64,000 nucleotides of DNA. It comes from Acidobacteriota bacterium. Its GTDB lineage: Bacteria > Acidobacteriota > UBA6911. Numbering within the stretch: position 1 is the stretch's first letter; every line of letters starts with the position of its first letter. The stretch spans positions 17,436 to 81,435 of the forward strand of contig JAISUT010000017.1 of assembly GCA_031271905.1 (NCBI GenBank). The letters are read 5' to 3'. Of this stretch, positions 5,233 to 63,297 are shown piece after piece. A program made the position numbers and the translations under genes. The notes under the pieces were generated by a model, which saw only the letters and a program-made list of their open reading frames with translations, had not been told where the DNA came from and made no database searches.

Positions 5233-5300
5233 GGGAGCCTCTAAAAACCCCGGACGCCGCGTTGCGCCTTGGGATTCGATATGCGGCTTCGCGGCGGACG
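5233..5300. repeat. truncated copy of the interspersed palindromic element family (left arm CCTCTAAAAACCCCGGACGCCGCGTTGCGCCTTGG plus part of the core)
   Basis: It matches the left half of the long-form copies at 24574, 34162, 43448 and 44803. It sits between the convergent genes aguA and rng. Confidence 0.6.
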
Positions 5301-5328
5301 CCCCCCTTGCGGAGGGGACGCCCCGCGC

Positions 5329-7473
5329 CTAGTTCACGATGTTGAAATGCTCGATGTGCAACGCCGGGTCGGCTTTGACGATCACGTCGCGCCGCAGGAT
5401 GTGCCGCAACTCCTCGAGCACCCCCGACTCCGCGTCCCGCAGCGCCTTTGCCACGTCCGGGTGTACGCGGACCATCAGCTCCGCGCGGTCGTCAAGGATG
5501 CCGCGCATCTTCTCGATCTCGTGGAAGATGCTGTGGCAGGTCGTGGAGACCGACTTGACCATCCCCGAGCCGGAGCAGTAGGGGCATGTCTGGCAGAGCG
5601 AGCGTTCGAGCGACTGCTTGACGCGCTTGCGCGTGATCGCCACCAAGCCGAATTCGTTGAACTCCAGGATCTTGCTGGGCGCCTTGTCGCGCGCGATCTC
5701 CTCGGAAAGCGCCTCCATGACGCGCTTGCGGTTCTTGCGCTCGTCCATGTCGATGAAATCGACCACGATGATGCCGCCCAGGTCGCGCAACCGCACCTGG
5801 CGCACGATCTCCTTGACCGCCTCCAGGTTCGTCCGGGTTATGGTCTCCTCCAAGCTGTTGCCGCGCCCGACGAACTTGCCGGTGTTGACGTCGATGCTGA
5901 CCAGCGCCTCGGTCTGGTTGATGACGATGTAACCGCCCGACTTGAGCCATATCTTGGGATGCAGCAGCTTGTCGATCTCGGGGGTGATGCCGTACTCGTC
6001 GAAGATGTCGTTGTCCTTGGTGTAGAGCTTCACCCTGTGCACGAGGTCGGGGAATATCTTGTCCACGAACTCGACGACGCGTTGGTATTCCATCTCATCG
6101 TCCACGCGGATGGAGGCGAACTCGAACGAGAACTGGTCGCGCAGGAGGCGCTGCACCAGGCTCATTTCGGCGTGGACGAGCGCCGGGGCCGAAACCCGCT
6201 CCGCCTTGGTGCGCATGTCCTCCCAGATGCGCACGAGGAAGAGCAGGTCGTTCACCAAGTCCTCCTCGCTGTGCTCTGCGGCGGCGGTGCGCACGATGAC
6301 GCCGCCCGGGAACCGCTCCCGGTGGCGCAGGATGATCTCCTTCAGGCGCATCCGCTCCCCGTCCGAGCCGATCTTGCGGGAGACGCCGATGTGATCCACC
6401 GTCGGCATGTAGACCAGGTAGCGGCCCGGCAGGGCGATGTGGCTGGTCACGCGCGCGCCTTTGCGGGCGATGGGCTCCTTGGCGACCTGCACCAAGATCT
6501 CCTGCCCCTCGTGGAGCATGTCGTCGATGGAATGGTGCTCCGCCGGCGTCCGTTGCGGCGTGTGGCGCGGGGCGGCGTAACGCTTGCGACGCGCCGCCAT
6601 CCCACGGCGGTGGGGGAAGCTCCCGCGTCCGCCTTCGGAGTCGCCCTTGTCGGCGGAGAACCCCGGCCGGGCGCCGTCGTCCCGGATGGATGCGTCGCCC
6701 GTGCCAGCGCTGGCGGGCGTTTCCGAGGCCGCCGGCGATGCGTCTCGCGCGTCCTCGCCGAGGGCTTGCGCCCCGTCTGCGGAAGGTGCCTCGGCGGCGT
6801 CCGAAGCCGATTCCAATTCGGTTGAGGTTTCGCATGCGTCGGGGACGGGCTGCCCCGGCGTCGCCTCGTCCAACGCCTGCGGGGGCTCGGATGGTTGAGG
6901 CGCCTCGGCGGTTTCCGCCTCCATGGCGGGCGCGTCGGCCATGGAAGCAGGGTCTGTCGAGTCGAGGCGTTCGGGCTGCGTGGGGCTTTCGACGTAGACG
7001 CGGATCCAGAAGCCCCCGTCCTCGTGAAACTCCCAGCGGCTTTCCACCTGCGCCGCGGCGGGCGACTGGCGCCTGGCATCGCCGGAAGCCGCGCGATGGT
7101 CCCCGCGCTCACGGCGGTCGCGCCAGCGGTGCCGCTCGCCACGGCGTTCCCGGCGCGACTGACGTGGCTCGGCGGCGGCTTCGGCCTCGGATTCGACGAT
7201 GTTCACGGGGTCGTCCGCAGGGAGGTCGGAATCGAGCTCGTCGCTCTCCTCCACGAAGTCCGAGACGTACAGGAAGGCGTCCTTCTCCAGCCCGATGTCC
7301 ACGAAGGCGGACTGCATCCCCGGAAGGACTTTGGTCACCCTTCCCTTATAGGTGTTTGCCAAGATGCCGCGATTGCGTTGCCGCTCGATGTACAGCTCTG
7401 CCAGACGGTCGTCCTCTAATATGGCGACCCTCGTTTCCAAGGCAGTGCTGGAAACGATCATATCTTTGATCAT
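5329..7473 (-). CDS. rng: ribonuclease G / RNase E-family endoribonuclease with a large disordered insertion
   Basis: 714 aa. An N-terminal S1 domain (GRVTKVLPGMQSAFVDIGL) is followed by a conserved RNase E/G catalytic core (EGQEILVQVAKEPIARKGARVTSHIALPGRYLVYMP ... DVNTGKFVGRGNSLEETITRTNLEA ... CPYCSGSG). A ~240-aa acidic, Arg/Ala/Pro-rich insertion occupies aa ~75-315. Confidence 0.85.
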   Translation of the reverse strand: MIKDMIVSSTALETRVAILEDDRLAELYIERQRNRGILANTYKGRVTKVLPGMQSAFVDIGLEKDAFLYVSDFVEESDELDSDLPADDPVNIVESEAEAAAEPRQSRRERRGERHRWRDRRERGDHRAASGDARRQSPAAAQVESRWEFHEDGGFWIRVYVESPTQPERLDSTDPASMADAPAMEAETAEAPQPSEPPQALDEATPGQPVPDACETSTELESASDAAEAPSADGAQALGEDARDASPAASETPASAGTGDASIRDDGARPGFSADKGDSEGGRGSFPHRRGMAARRKRYAAPRHTPQRTPAEHHSIDDMLHEGQEILVQVAKEPIARKGARVTSHIALPGRYLVYMPTVDHIGVSRKIGSDGERMRLKEIILRHRERFPGGVIVRTAAAEHSEEDLVNDLLFLVRIWEDMRTKAERVSAPALVHAEMSLVQRLLRDQFSFEFASIRVDDEMEYQRVVEFVDKIFPDLVHRVKLYTKDNDIFDEYGITPEIDKLLHPKIWLKSGGYIVINQTEALVSIDVNTGKFVGRGNSLEETITRTNLEAVKEIVRQVRLRDLGGIIVVDFIDMDERKNRKRVMEALSEEIARDKAPSKILEFNEFGLVAITRKRVKQSLERSLCQTCPYCSGSGMVKSVSTTCHSIFHEIEKMRGILDDRAELMVRVHPDVAKALRDAESGVLEELRHILRRDVIVKADPALHIEHFNIVN

Positions 7474-7995
7474 GAACCTGCTCCCGTGTCATGGGACGCA
7501 GCCGCCTGAGCGAGGAATGAAGGGGTCGGTGCGGATCAGAACAGACAAGGCACGCCTTTCAGGTCGTCACCCGTGTTGGTTGACAAAAGTGATTTTAACG
7601 CCATGATCGCGCTTCCATCATGAACCTGTTAACCTGTTGCGAACCTTGCCTTTTAACCGGGAGAAACCGTTCGGACGCCCCGGCTCGCCTCATCGCGAGC
7701 CCTCCGCGAGGCCGATGGCGGGGCGACAGCGCCTTTCGGCTTCCGCCCTGCGTCCATCCCTTCCGGAGACGCCTGGTGTCTCGCACTGCGAAAATCTTGC
7801 CTGCACCCCGACAGGGGCGTGCAGATCGAATCCCGTTTCTTGCATCCGCCCTTCGCTTATCGCAAAGCGACTGGTCGATTGTGAAAACCAAAATGCTCAA
7901 TTGTTCTCGAAAACTTGCAATCACCGTTGAAAATGATGACATGCGAAACGTTCAAACTTGAAATTCGCAACGGGTCTCATCGAACCCGAAAGAGT

Positions 7996-61823: not shown

Positions 61824-62040
61824 AGCGCGGGAAGGGGGGCGGGGGGCGGAGCCCCGCCGGCAACCGCTTCGCGGTTGTGCGGCGACAAGCCGCCGCCTTC
61901 GCGGGGTGCGGGCTCGCCCAGAACGCTAAACCGCCGATTTGGCGCATTGGCGACGGGTGCTGGGGCGCGCCCCGCCCCGCACCCGACCCCTTGCAAAGTC
62001 CCCCCTTTCACGCCCCGCGATTGATGTTAATATTAGCGCC

Positions 62041-63234
62041 GTGAAACAGACGATACTTGTCCATTACCATGAGATCAGCCTCAAAGGGAACAACCGCGGC
62101 TGGTTCGAGAACCAGTTGAGCCGCCACCTCGCCGCCCTGCTCAGGGACGTGCCGCACGGCGCGATGCGGCGCTTCGCGGGGCGGCTGGGCATCGAGCTCG
62201 CCGAGGACGCCCTGCCTGCGGAGGTCGATGCCGTCGTCCGCCGGCTGCGGACGGTCTTCGGCGTCGCCAACTTCGTCGTGGCGCGGGAGGTGCCTGCGGA
62301 CTTGGGCGCGATCAAGGCGGGGCTGGAGGAGCTGGCGGCCGCCACCGACTTCCAGTCGTTCAAGATCGACGCGCGGCGGGGGACGAAGGAGTTCCCGCTC
62401 AACTCCCAGCAGTTGAACCAGCAGCTCGGGGCGCACATCCAGGGGTTGACGCGCAAGCAGGTGCGCATGGAAGGCCCGGACGCGACCTTCGGCGTGGAGA
62501 TCGCCGAGGGGCGCGCCTTCCTCTCCGCAGGCAAGGTCCAAGGGGCGGGGGGGCTCCCCTCCGGGACGGGCGGCAAGGCGGTCTGCCTGCTTTCCGGGGG
62601 CTTGGACTCGCCGGTCGCGGCATGGCGCATCATGCGGCGCGGCTGCCGCGTCCAGTACGTCCACTTCCACAGCTTCCCGCACACGACGGTGGAGTCGCAG
62701 GACAAGGTGCGCCGCATCCTCGGCGTCCTCTCCCGCTACCAGTTGGGCTCGGCGCTGTTCCTGGTGCCCTTCTCCGAGGTGCAGCGGGAGATCGTCGCCT
62801 ACGCGCCGCCGCCCCTGCGGGTGGTGCTCTACCGGCGCTTCATGGTGCGCATCGCCGAGGCGGTCGCCGCGCGGGAGAAGGCGCTGGCGCTGGTCACGGG
62901 AGACAGCCTGGGGCAGGTCGCCAGCCAGACGATGGAGAACCTGCGCACGATCTCGGCGGTGGCGGCGCTCCCCATCCTCCGCCCCCTGGTCGGCGACGAC
63001 AAGGAGGACATCATGCGCGCGGCGCGCGCCATCGGCACCTACGACATCAGCATCCAGGCCGACCAGGACTGCTGCTCGCTCTTCGTCCCCAAGCACCCGG
63101 AGACGATGTCAGACCTCGGGCAGGCCGAGCGCGCCGAGGCGCAACTGGACGTCCAGCGCCTGTGCCGGGAGGCGCTGGAGGGGATGACGCGCGAAACCGT
63201 CCCCCCCGATTGGCGGGATGGGGGGACGTCTTGA
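62041..63234 (+). CDS. thiI: tRNA uracil 4-sulfurtransferase ThiI
   Basis: The start is GTG 62041, giving 397 aa. It has a THUMP domain and the PP-loop motif CLLSGGLDSPVAAW. No C-terminal rhodanese domain is present, so this is the short ThiI form. Confidence 0.8.
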   Translation: MKQTILVHYHEISLKGNNRGWFENQLSRHLAALLRDVPHGAMRRFAGRLGIELAEDALPAEVDAVVRRLRTVFGVANFVVAREVPADLGAIKAGLEELAAATDFQSFKIDARRGTKEFPLNSQQLNQQLGAHIQGLTRKQVRMEGPDATFGVEIAEGRAFLSAGKVQGAGGLPSGTGGKAVCLLSGGLDSPVAAWRIMRRGCRVQYVHFHSFPHTTVESQDKVRRILGVLSRYQLGSALFLVPFSEVQREIVAYAPPPLRVVLYRRFMVRIAEAVAAREKALALVTGDSLGQVASQTMENLRTISAVAALPILRPLVGDDKEDIMRAARAIGTYDISIQADQDCCSLFVPKHPETMSDLGQAERAEAQLDVQRLCREALEGMTRETVPPDWRDGGTS

Positions 63235-63297
63235 GGGCGCCTCTAAAAGCTCGCAGGCAAGGCGCAACGCGGTATCCCGGGGTTTTTAGAGGTCGCC
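63235..63297. repeat. short-form copy of the interspersed palindromic element, directly after thiI and upstream of metX
   Basis: gggcgcctctaaaagctcgcaggcaaggcgcaacgcggtatcccggggtttttagaggtcgcc. Confidence 0.75.

Follow-up and report, generated by a model that had tools for sequence, protein, structure and literature searches.

A hairpin-forming palindromic repeat family with nested long and short forms in an acidobacterial genome

Small palindromic repeats influence operon expression, break assemblies, as was also seen here, and record recent genome history. The Correia elements of Neisseria and the ERIC/IRU elements of enterobacteria and Yersinia are palindromes of 100-160 bp with terminal inverted repeats, in which long and short variants arise via internal deletion; they make TA duplications, occur in both orientations, and are co-transcribed as hairpins that affect mRNA processing, stability and termination. 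REP doublets, or REPINs, are mobilised by RAYT, tyrosine (HUH) transposases, in E. coli and Pseudomonas, and the E. coli REP consensus is GCCGGATGCGGCGTGAACGCCTTATCCGGCCTAC (PMC12306157). CCTC variants of the CGTC tag exist, and intragenic units are a feature of both REP super-families (PMC3733652). In Halothiobacillus neapolitanus, a 41-bp palindrome with the consensus GGGaaGCTT-GAAAaACC--...GGTaTTTCgAAGC-gCCC encloses CGTC-1 REP dimers (Di Nocera et al. 2013, PMC3733652). Among MITEs, 97.4% of clusters were found to be genus-specific (Nadal-Molero et al. 2024, PMC11602168).

For the acidobacterial lineage studied here, no such repeat has been described before. The window, the whole stretch of 64,000 nucleotides that was analysed, taken from an uncultured member of the Acidobacteriota, contains eleven copies of one hairpin-forming repeat, 53-121 bp each. 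The repeat is probably a non-autonomous palindromic family of the REPIN/MITE kind that is co-transcribed as a stable hairpin, its mobility and RNA function being what we infer from the evidence below.

Extent and architecture of the family

The copies, with their nhmmer E-values, gene settings and individual folds, were as follows.

c1, 5233-5300, + strand: left arm plus what is left of the right half, most of the core being deleted and the right arm lost, E 4e-09 across model positions 2-58; between the convergent genes (named by Pfam) for GH67 (stop 5227) and RNase G (stop 5329), beginning 5 nt past the GH67 stop.
c2, 24574-24694, + strand: full long form, 121 nt, E 2e-36; two - strand zinc-ribbon genes on either side, start 24545 being 28 nt downstream; -53.4 kcal/mol on the gene-sense strand against -47.4 on the other.
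c3, 34162-34278, + strand: long form with diverged right arm, E 2e-30; a hybrid histidine kinase gene (start 34074) on one side and, directly adjoining on the other, the stop codon (34279-34281) of a LuxR-type gene; fold no longer better than shuffles.
c4, 43448-43566, + strand: full long form, 119 nt, E 3e-37; between divergent genes for a Tat-signal ferredoxin (- strand, annotated start 43437) and a methyltransferase (+ strand, start 43676); -61.2 against -50.7 kcal/mol on the two strands.
c5, 44802-44921, + strand: full long form, 120 nt, E 2e-35; between convergent genes for the methyltransferase (stop 44668) and a BlaI-type repressor (stop 44953); -73 kcal/mol, z -5 to -6.6.
c6, 46857-46920, - strand: degenerate short form, short-form E 2e-14; in a divergent region, the first gene of a group-4 hydrogenase/Mrp-like operon (start 46953) lying 32 nt downstream.
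c7, 48451-48510, - strand: degenerate short form, T tract lost, E 6e-04 to 1e-03, carrying the family 18-mer with two mismatches; flanked by co-directional operon genes (stop 48401, start 48526).
c8, 55293-55348, - strand: minimal form, 56 nt, a near-perfect hairpin, E 1e-08; between a hydrogenase large-subunit gene (stop 55271) and a NuoH-like gene (start 55375); -49.3 kcal/mol, z -6.8.
c9, 57738-57802, - strand: short form, 65 nt, E 4e-18; HycI (stop 57480) before it, the ATG of an MFS-type gene (57807) within 4 nt after it; -39.8 kcal/mol, z -6.5.
c10, 63235-63297, - strand: short form, 63 nt, E 2e-16; first base directly after the ThiI stop codon (63234), next start (63314) 16 nt on.
c11, 57078-57130, - strand: minimal form, absent from the original prediction, E 4e-03, with the 18-mer exact at 57099-57116; in frame within a HycI-like maturation protease ORF (56803-57480); fold no better than shuffles.

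A long-form nhmmer profile built from the four long copies and a separate short-form profile matched each of the ten loci originally listed, confirming that they belong to a single family. The long-form profile recovered the four long copies with E-values between 2e-30 and 3e-37, and the half copy (5234-5292) with 4e-09; the short-form profile recovered the copies at 57738, 63235, 46857 and 55293 at E 4e-18 to 1e-08 and that at 48455-48510 at E 6e-04. The expected similarity above shuffled sequence was likewise found: the arm 16-mer CCTCTRAAAACCCCGG, with up to two mismatches, occurred 7 times in the window against 0.07 expected, and AAAACCCCGGACGCYGCG, with up to three, 10 times against 0.42, counts that were equalled by no shuffle. 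Pairwise identity was 75-87% between long copies and 52-84% between short ones, and the longest word common to any two copies in the window was at most 30 nt.

Several boundaries and settings had to be corrected. The supposed partial copy at 48474-48510 is in fact complete, a degenerate short copy (c7), and the copy at 34162 stands as a locus, with its right end at 34278 rather than 34275. The statement that every copy is intergenic fails at c11 (ten of the eleven are extragenic), and the suggested preference for convergent gene ends is not borne out, since merely two of eleven copies lie there. The interior copy c11 encodes ...GEKPAGAASGVFNDA... in a protein loop, and the closest homologue of its ORF, P0126 (62% identity), is without about 27 residues at that site.

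The terminal inverted repeats are imperfect and 17-23 bp long, and the element, well within the size limit of about 300 bp for MITEs, has no dedicated ORF. In the orientation here called forward, the 5' half runs from the outer stem GGGnGCCTCT through an A tract and the module CCCCGGACGCYGCGTYGCGCC to a variable apex, and the 3' half from the module GCGCCTTGYCYGCGAGG through a T tract to the outer stem AGAGGCGCCC. The long form adds a 42-nt apical hairpin, GTCGAAAA-N26-TTTTCGAC, with a 16-nt direct repeat on both sides. Aligned with long forms, short forms (about 63 nt) keep the same order and lack about 58 nt bounded by the 16-nt direct repeat, and minimal forms measure 53-56 nt. The deletions are nested and central, and the direct repeat CAAGGCG..GCAG stands at their junctions. 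The inverted termini, the nested core hairpin and the relation of long to short forms are as originally described; the short copies are not the two arms alone, for one copy of the 16-nt direct repeat is kept. Most likely, the short and minimal forms lost the tip of the hairpin through deletion between direct repeats of this kind.

At their gathering thresholds, Rfam covariance models matched only a tRNA in the window and nothing at the repeat copies; nothing relevant was matched by two long copies at E up to 10 or by two copies of the type-B relatives described below at E up to 5, and the arm sequences occur in no publication within the searchable literature. The proposal of an uncatalogued family is supported, as is its assignment to interspersed palindromic repeats of REP/MITE-like kind with nested long and short forms.

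Relatives elsewhere and the search for signatures of transposition

Independent contigs of the same sample in Logan, which we take to be k=31 assemblies, end at 5262 within c1 and, in two cases, at 57768 and 57778 within c9, and one starts at about 44883 within c5. Since k=31 contigs break inside these copies and no word longer than 30 nt is shared in the window, identical words must recur elsewhere in the genome, which implies more copies of the family there. Relatives with 84-88% identical ProRS carried no copy across about 75 kb.

A second family, type B, has arms homologous to those of the window (type A) and a different centre. It turned up in two contigs from metagenomes, one of 38% and one of 50% GC, as well as in phage contigs with from 2 to at least 4 copies each; one of these phage contigs encodes terminase gpA and DnaB. 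Homologues can thus be recognised in genomes whose GC is 38%, 50% and 67%; in other organisms its elements sit in unrelated gene contexts. The window profile matched L040 at E 1e-04, and the independent type-B profile in turn matched c2 at E 1e-04 and c4 at E 3e-03. A spacer of 167 nt is filled by the element in L040; in the nearest relative, L159, the two orthologous genes lie 8 nt apart, the pair being 61% identical at the protein level.

The usual traces of transposition were searched for. Direct repeats of at least 2 bp were absent from the flanks of all type-A and type-B copies compared, 11 of each. Neither a transposase nor a RAYT (Y1_Tnp) gene was found in the window or 10 kb upstream, and an autonomous IS sharing these termini was likewise absent from the window, the 10 kb upstream and the phage loci; about 1.5 Mb of searched sequence contained no IS with these ends and no solo terminal repeats flanking a larger element. 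No filled site could be matched cleanly with an empty one: in the phages compared, spacers had been replaced, not precisely interrupted by an insertion. Under the REPIN/MITE reading, copies probably spread in trans by an enzyme encoded beyond the window, and an HUH/tyrosine mechanism (RAYT- or IS200-like) would be favoured over a DDE transposase because target-site duplications are absent.

It is possible, if doubtful, that the arms of about 35 nt represent an undescribed, cross-phylum, phage-borne superfamily of duplication-less palindromic elements, carried by phages from one distant host to another and kept as portable, orientation-dependent terminator or RNA-stabiliser modules. The arm would then run from the outer stem through an A5 tract to CCGGAYGCTGCGTYGCGC, its counterpart being GCGCCTTGYCYGCGAGS followed by a T5 tract and the outer stem. 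Swappable cassettes would occupy the apex: in the window the 42-nt core, in type B a different set of hairpins and, possibly, in Halothiobacillus the REP dimers.

A classical DDE-type MITE, whose terminal inverted repeats bind the transposase of an IS encoded elsewhere and whose duplications are too short (TA, for example) or eroded, appears improbable. It would account for the clear terminal inverted repeats, roughly 17-35 bp on this reading and kept between type A (GGGAGCCTCTAAAAACC) and type B (GACGGCTTCGTAAAAAG), for a centre that varies freely and the internal-deletion variants, both known from Correia and ERIC elements, and for the AT-rich insertion sites of several copies. The missing flanking repeats and the failure to find an IS with these ends in the sequence searched argue against it, and so does the strict orientation relative to transcription described next, which is unexpected for DDE insertion.

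Folding, orientation and transcription

Intact copies fold at -30 to -73 kcal/mol (z -3 to -7); in truncated or degenerate copies the advantage over shuffled sequence has gone. Folded as a consensus, the four long copies form 44 pairs, six with compensatory double changes, and the gene-sense strand folds better (-54.2 vs -36.1 kcal/mol). The better-folding strand was the gene-sense strand in 10 of 10 copies, which do not amount to ten independent observations because the asymmetry is largely inherited from a common ancestor copy. All seven orientable copies in the window are antisense to genes in the chosen forward orientation; the long copies are all on the + strand and the short copies all on the - strand, with a switch near 45 kb that follows gene direction, and GC skew is positive throughout the window. 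The settings comprise 2 convergent, 2 divergent, 6 co-directional and 1 intragenic, at 3-87 nt from start codons. Type-B copies in phages and in L045 have the reversed orientation relative to genes, so that no universal RNA-level rule applies.

As a palindromic repeat of the REPIN/MITE kind, an inserted copy would be co-transcribed with its neighbour genes, the RNA forming a hairpin of great stability with GGGGUUUUU at its end. Persistence in this genome would be limited to copies that fold better on the mRNA strand, and their orientation and fold suggest that such copies are probably not mere passengers but partial terminators or barriers at the 3' end. Many copies are decaying; divergence (52-87% identity) and degenerate copies that fold no better than shuffles are expected of selfish repeats, as seen.

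There is little likelihood that the copies are immobile, ordinary bidirectional intrinsic terminators or mRNA-stabilising hairpins that resemble one another through shared constraints or gene conversion. The A tract, GC-rich hairpin and T tract of a terminator are all present, a hairpin followed by U4-5 is formed on both strands with the longer U run on the co-transcribed one (GGGGUUUUU vs GAGGUUUUC), and most copies lie between genes. A terminator scan marked only a small 5-bp sub-hairpin with a T run, in the left arm of four copies, and terminator-like sites overall were not enriched over shuffles. Conservation also covers loops and, outside the A and T tracts, the outer stems, none of which a terminator requires; copies occur in two divergent promoter regions, between hydrogenase subunit genes of an operon and in coding sequence; and homologues are found in phages and low-GC bacteria. 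It is very improbable that the copies are genes for structured non-coding RNAs, or cis-regulatory leaders that recognise one particular ligand or protein, for the consistent orientation with genes, the compensatory changes and the nearby start codons are countered by functionally unrelated neighbouring genes, a structure that is a near-perfect palindrome on either strand, the existence of degenerate, truncated and even coding copies, the lack of any Rfam match even at E up to 10, and the reversal of the orientation rule in type B.

Comparison with known systems

The repeat is a new family, not a new kind, of the familiar REP/MITE repeats, with relatives among phages and unrelated bacteria of low GC. 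Two observations go beyond a routine new family: relatives can be recognised in phages and across organisms that differ widely in GC, despite the near-universal genus-specificity reported for MITE clusters (PMC11602168), and in this window its orientation strictly tracks gene direction, independent of GC skew. If the arms form a conserved recognition or termination module, they would offer a handle on the movement of repeats between phyla and on why they are retained. We know of no recognised sequence similarity to Correia or ERIC/IRU, which the repeat resembles in its palindromic build, terminal inverted repeats and long and short variants; unlike them, it shows no duplication and has a single orientation relative to genes in the window. 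The in-frame position of c11 in a protein loop, with the ORF intact, recalls Rickettsia palindromic elements (RPE) and intragenic REPs; unlike RPE, there is one such case only, the loop varies in length among homologues, and c11 was presumably inserted. Being multi-copy in phage contigs, the type-B relatives are like the MITEs shared by phages and hosts (Nadal-Molero et al. 2024, PMC11602168), but homologues across genomes of such different GC set them apart from genus-specific clusters.

The Halothiobacillus palindrome, compared by its printed consensus only, resembles the arms (GGGAACCTGCGAAAAACC in c2, GGGAACCTCTAAAAACC in c4) and is built alike, the outer palindrome containing A and T tracts and the apex an insert that varies; its insert is a REP dimer of a defined family, unlike the core here. 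When set against the E. coli REP consensus, both the ends of L040 and a c4 sequence lacking the core showed a likeness over about 28 nt that 3-4 of 2000 shuffles equalled, and the similarity of c9, c10, c8 and c6 was not significant. The GTAG/CGTC tag of REPs is missing, CCTC or GCTC standing there paired rather than unpaired; the REP-like part sits inside A and T tracts and an outer stem of 10 bp, no gene for RAYT accompanies it in the window, and the stems of 8-9 bp and loops of 4-5 nt of CGTC REP families do not fit it. In conclusion, like REP doublets and REPINs, these are short imperfect palindromes, dense, interspersed and mostly intergenic, and like REPINs they form a long, co-transcribed hairpin, without target-site duplication, in which conserved flanks enclose a freer centre.

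Copies and anatomy of the type-A repeat

The palindromic loci of the window constitute one real repeat family, here called type A, as the original prediction had held; both profile E-values and word counts show this. In a de novo repeat search, the four long copies formed the top repeat family of the window and five left arms the second. A long-copy profile (nhmmer) recovered the four long copies at E 2e-30 to 3e-37 and a half copy at 5234-5292 at E 4e-09, while a short-form profile recovered four short copies at E 4e-18 to 1e-08 and the degenerate copy at 48455-48510 at E 6e-04. 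The arm 16-mer with up to 2 mismatches was observed 7 times against 0.07 expected in the window, and the arm 18-mer with up to 3 mismatches 10 times against 0.42, counts that 0 shuffles reached; the 18-mer search also revealed an eleventh copy, c11, through an exact match at 57099-57116. Long copies are 75-87% identical to one another and short ones 52-84%; type A is an old family whose members include decaying ones.

The forward strand was defined as the one reading GGGnGCCTCTRAAAACCCCGGACGCYGCGTYGCGCCTTG... In this orientation, all five core-bearing copies lie on the + strand and all six short copies on the - strand.

Copies of the type-A repeat (start in the window, strand of the forward orientation, form, gene context)
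c1: 5233, +, core-bearing half copy, between convergent genes
c2: 24574, +, long, between co-directional genes
c3: 34162, +, long, between co-directional genes
c4: 43448, +, long, between divergent genes
c5: 44802, +, long, between convergent genes
c6: 46857, -, short, between divergent genes
c7: 48451, -, short and degenerate, between co-directional genes
c8: 55293, -, minimal (56 nt), between co-directional genes
c9: 57738, -, short, between co-directional genes
c10: 63235, -, short, between co-directional genes
c11: 57078, -, minimal (53 nt), intragenic

Between its left and right arms, the long form holds two direct-repeat copies, the first CTGCGTCGCGCCTTG and the second CTGCGGCGGCGCCTTG, on either side of a 42-nt hairpin GTCGAAAA-N26-TTTTCGAC. 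As gene-sense RNA, the hairpin formed by a copy would end in GGGGUUUUU. The predicted nesting of long and short forms was confirmed, in that the short copies, of 63-65 nt, align collinearly with the long form and differ from it exactly by the absence of the hairpin and of one direct repeat, and the minimal copies c8 and c11 lack a further ~10 nt of the apex. The forms thus differ in size only by nested losses or gains at the tip of the hairpin. For the origin of the short forms, deletion between the direct repeats is favoured; insertion with duplication, generating the long form instead, is the less favoured reading of the same collinearity. The core-bearing copies are confined to the first 45 kb and the short ones to the last 18 kb, which coincides with their opposite strands.

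Gene context, orientation and folding

Two copies lie between convergent genes, two between divergent genes, six between co-directional genes and one within a gene, so that convergent gene ends, at which the original prediction had placed several copies, are not favoured (2/11 copies, c1 and c5). Nor is every copy intergenic as had been claimed, since c11 (57078-57130) lies in frame within a HycI-like hydrogenase maturation protease ORF (56803-57480), in a protein loop. The best homologue of this ORF among 1.8 billion representatives (P0126, 62% identity) is without ~27 residues at the c11 site, and the alignments of most HycI-like matches are split in two at this position. Stop codons are directly adjoined by c3 and c10, and c9 stops 4 nt short of a start codon. 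Immediately left of c3 are nine to ten T residues in a row (34151-34161), and AT-rich left flanks also occur at several other copies.

The forward strand is antisense to transcription in 7/7 copies with co-directional neighbours or a host gene, and the four ambiguous copies also conform when judged by the nearest gene. Copy orientation switches at ~45 kb together with gene direction, whereas GC skew stays positive over the entire window; orientation therefore follows transcription rather than replication.

Intact copies fold into a single long hairpin of -30 to -73 kcal/mol (z -3 to -7); the folds of the degenerate c1, c3, c7 and c11 are no more stable than those of shuffles. The consensus fold of the four long copies holds 44 pairs, 6 of them with compensatory double changes, such as U-A to C-G and G-C to A-U in the apical stem. 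In 10/10 copies the gene-sense strand folds better as RNA, an asymmetry largely inherited from a common ancestor and hence not ten independent events; the consensus fold of the gene-sense strand reaches -54.2 kcal/mol with 44 pairs, against -36.1 kcal/mol and 32 pairs for the forward strand.

Distribution in the source genome and type-B relatives

The window is chromosomal DNA (GC 66.6%) from the MAG of an uncultured member of the Acidobacteriota. The ProRS it encodes matches MDR1726974.1 at 100% identity, the next relatives being at most 88% identical, and the genes of the window are housekeeping and metabolic: GH67, RNase G, PurL, DsbD, TatA/C, ProRS, ThiI, a group-4 [NiFe] hydrogenase/Mrp-like operon and regulators. 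A transposase gene is not encoded within the 64 kb. A frameshifted GH13 pseudogene considered at 37-39 kb was rejected because GH13 shares its frame with a long antisense ORF. The repeats are densest in the hydrogenase operon region (c6, c7, c8, c11 and c9). The operon itself (46953-57480) may have been acquired horizontally, since the best GTDB relative of its subunit at 50383-51828 is a Syntrophorhabdaceae MAG (72% identity) although ProRS indicates an acidobacterial genome; that MAG carries none of the repeat elements. The Logan contig's gene table omits a 2x[4Fe-4S] NuoI/HycF-like gene at 56455-56894 (ATGAAAAAACCAGGG...CxxCxxCxxxC motifs). This gene overlaps the long N-terminus annotated for HycI; the true HycI start probably lies more downstream.

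In the Logan contigs, an independent assembly of the same sequencing run, breaks occur at 5262, ~44883 and 57768/57778, inside c1, c5 and c9. The longest exact word common to any two window copies is at most 30 nt, and the assembly k is presumably 31; breaks inside copies then imply identical words elsewhere in the genome, from which we infer further copies. Another Logan contig ends at 61879 inside a G-rich low-complexity tract (61823-61939, GGGAAGGGGGGCGGGGGGCGG), and a second such tract (44922-44950, GGGGCGGCGGGGCGGCGGGGCGG) immediately follows c5. A profile search of the 10 kb upstream of the window found no further copy. There were also none in the ProRS neighbourhoods of the closest relatives (L018-L022, 84-88% identity), in which the c2 site is not syntenic. 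The exact left-arm 25-mer AAAACCCCGGACGCYGCGTYGCGCC had 0 matches in GTDB representative genomes and 0 in JGI metagenomes, and six-frame translation of the concatenated long copies, searched against 5.8 billion proteins for spurious ORFs over other copies, scored nothing.

Related elements of a second type, B, occur in other organisms and in phages. The right-arm 20-mer gave at least 120 metagenome matches, almost all from one conserved, unrelated coding gene; among the matches listed, only the contigs L040 (5399-5523, GC 38.5%) and L045 (567-691, GC 50%) carry related elements, 125-nt palindromes with the subterminal modules of type A and a different centre. A profile of these two alone detects c2 (E 1e-04) and c4 (E 3e-03) nearly full length, the type-A profile in turn detects L040 at E 1e-04, and by eye the outer stems are alike too (GACGGCTTCGTAAAAAG vs GGGAGCCTCTAAAAACC). 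A left-module scan of viral contigs found type B in 2 to at least 4 copies per phage contig, in IMG/VR contigs L162, L163, L165, L166 and L171-L176 (e.g. IMGVR_UViG_3300037044_000250), one type-B phage contig encoding terminase gpA and DnaB. Type B comes in sizes of 122, 142 and 150 nt and in two co-varying arm variants, CCGGATGC...GCCTGCG and CCAATATC...GATCTTG. The flanking genes differ in every case. In L040 the element lies within a spacer of 167 nt that separates a histidine-kinase-like gene from the gene that follows; in the nearest relative, L159 (61% identity), these two genes are 8 nt apart. Related phage contigs gave no clean filled/empty pair, but replaced intergenic spacers or a rearranged remnant instead of clean insertions. 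At one orthologous phage site (L163 9868-9966 vs L166 7494-7616), what L163 retains is the left outer stem GACGGCTTCG together with a remnant CGTC; the interior of ~95 nt is different, with hairpins of its own, and the site may hold either a copy that was rearranged or an apex cassette that was swapped. With respect to the genes, type B is mostly oriented opposite to type A. As a lead only, both types carry the longer T run after the hairpin on their co-transcribed strand. Searches of PLSDB plasmids gave no significant match for either type and GenBank phages none for type B, while type-A patterns gave chance matches or none in viral contigs. It is these relatives in other taxa and in phages that most deserve further work.

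Probable mode of spread and comparison with known families

Integron attC sites, CRISPR arrays, retron ncRNA and riboswitches were rejected, because arrays and associated genes are absent and the copies lie in unrelated contexts. No target-site duplication was found at any copy of either type, which speaks against a DDE-type MITE and fits REP/REPIN-like or IS200-like biology, suggesting a mobilising enzyme of such a kind. Most likely, type A is a non-autonomous, duplication-less palindromic element that would be mobilised in trans, co-transcribed with its neighbours as a stable hairpin and retained, in this genome, in one orientation only; its mobility is putative, and the hairpin may act as a terminator or stabiliser.

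Apart from the corrections on gene context, the REP/MITE-like interpretation was essentially right. The family was also rightly taken as not yet catalogued: Rfam holds no match for type A or type B, the arm sequences were not found in the searchable literature, and no description of acidobacterial MITEs or REPs there matches. Type A is a new family within a known kind of palindromic repeats. Correia and ERIC elements form long/short pairs by internal deletion, and the pairing here would have arisen likewise; the in-frame loop of c11, absent from the closest homologue, recalls the Rickettsia RPEs. The GTAG/CGTC tag of REPs is missing from type A, and only two constructs are significantly similar to the E. 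coli REP consensus (PMC12306157). The arms seem to resemble the published consensus of a 41-bp palindrome of Halothiobacillus neapolitanus, which encloses CGTC-1 REP dimers (PMC3733652).
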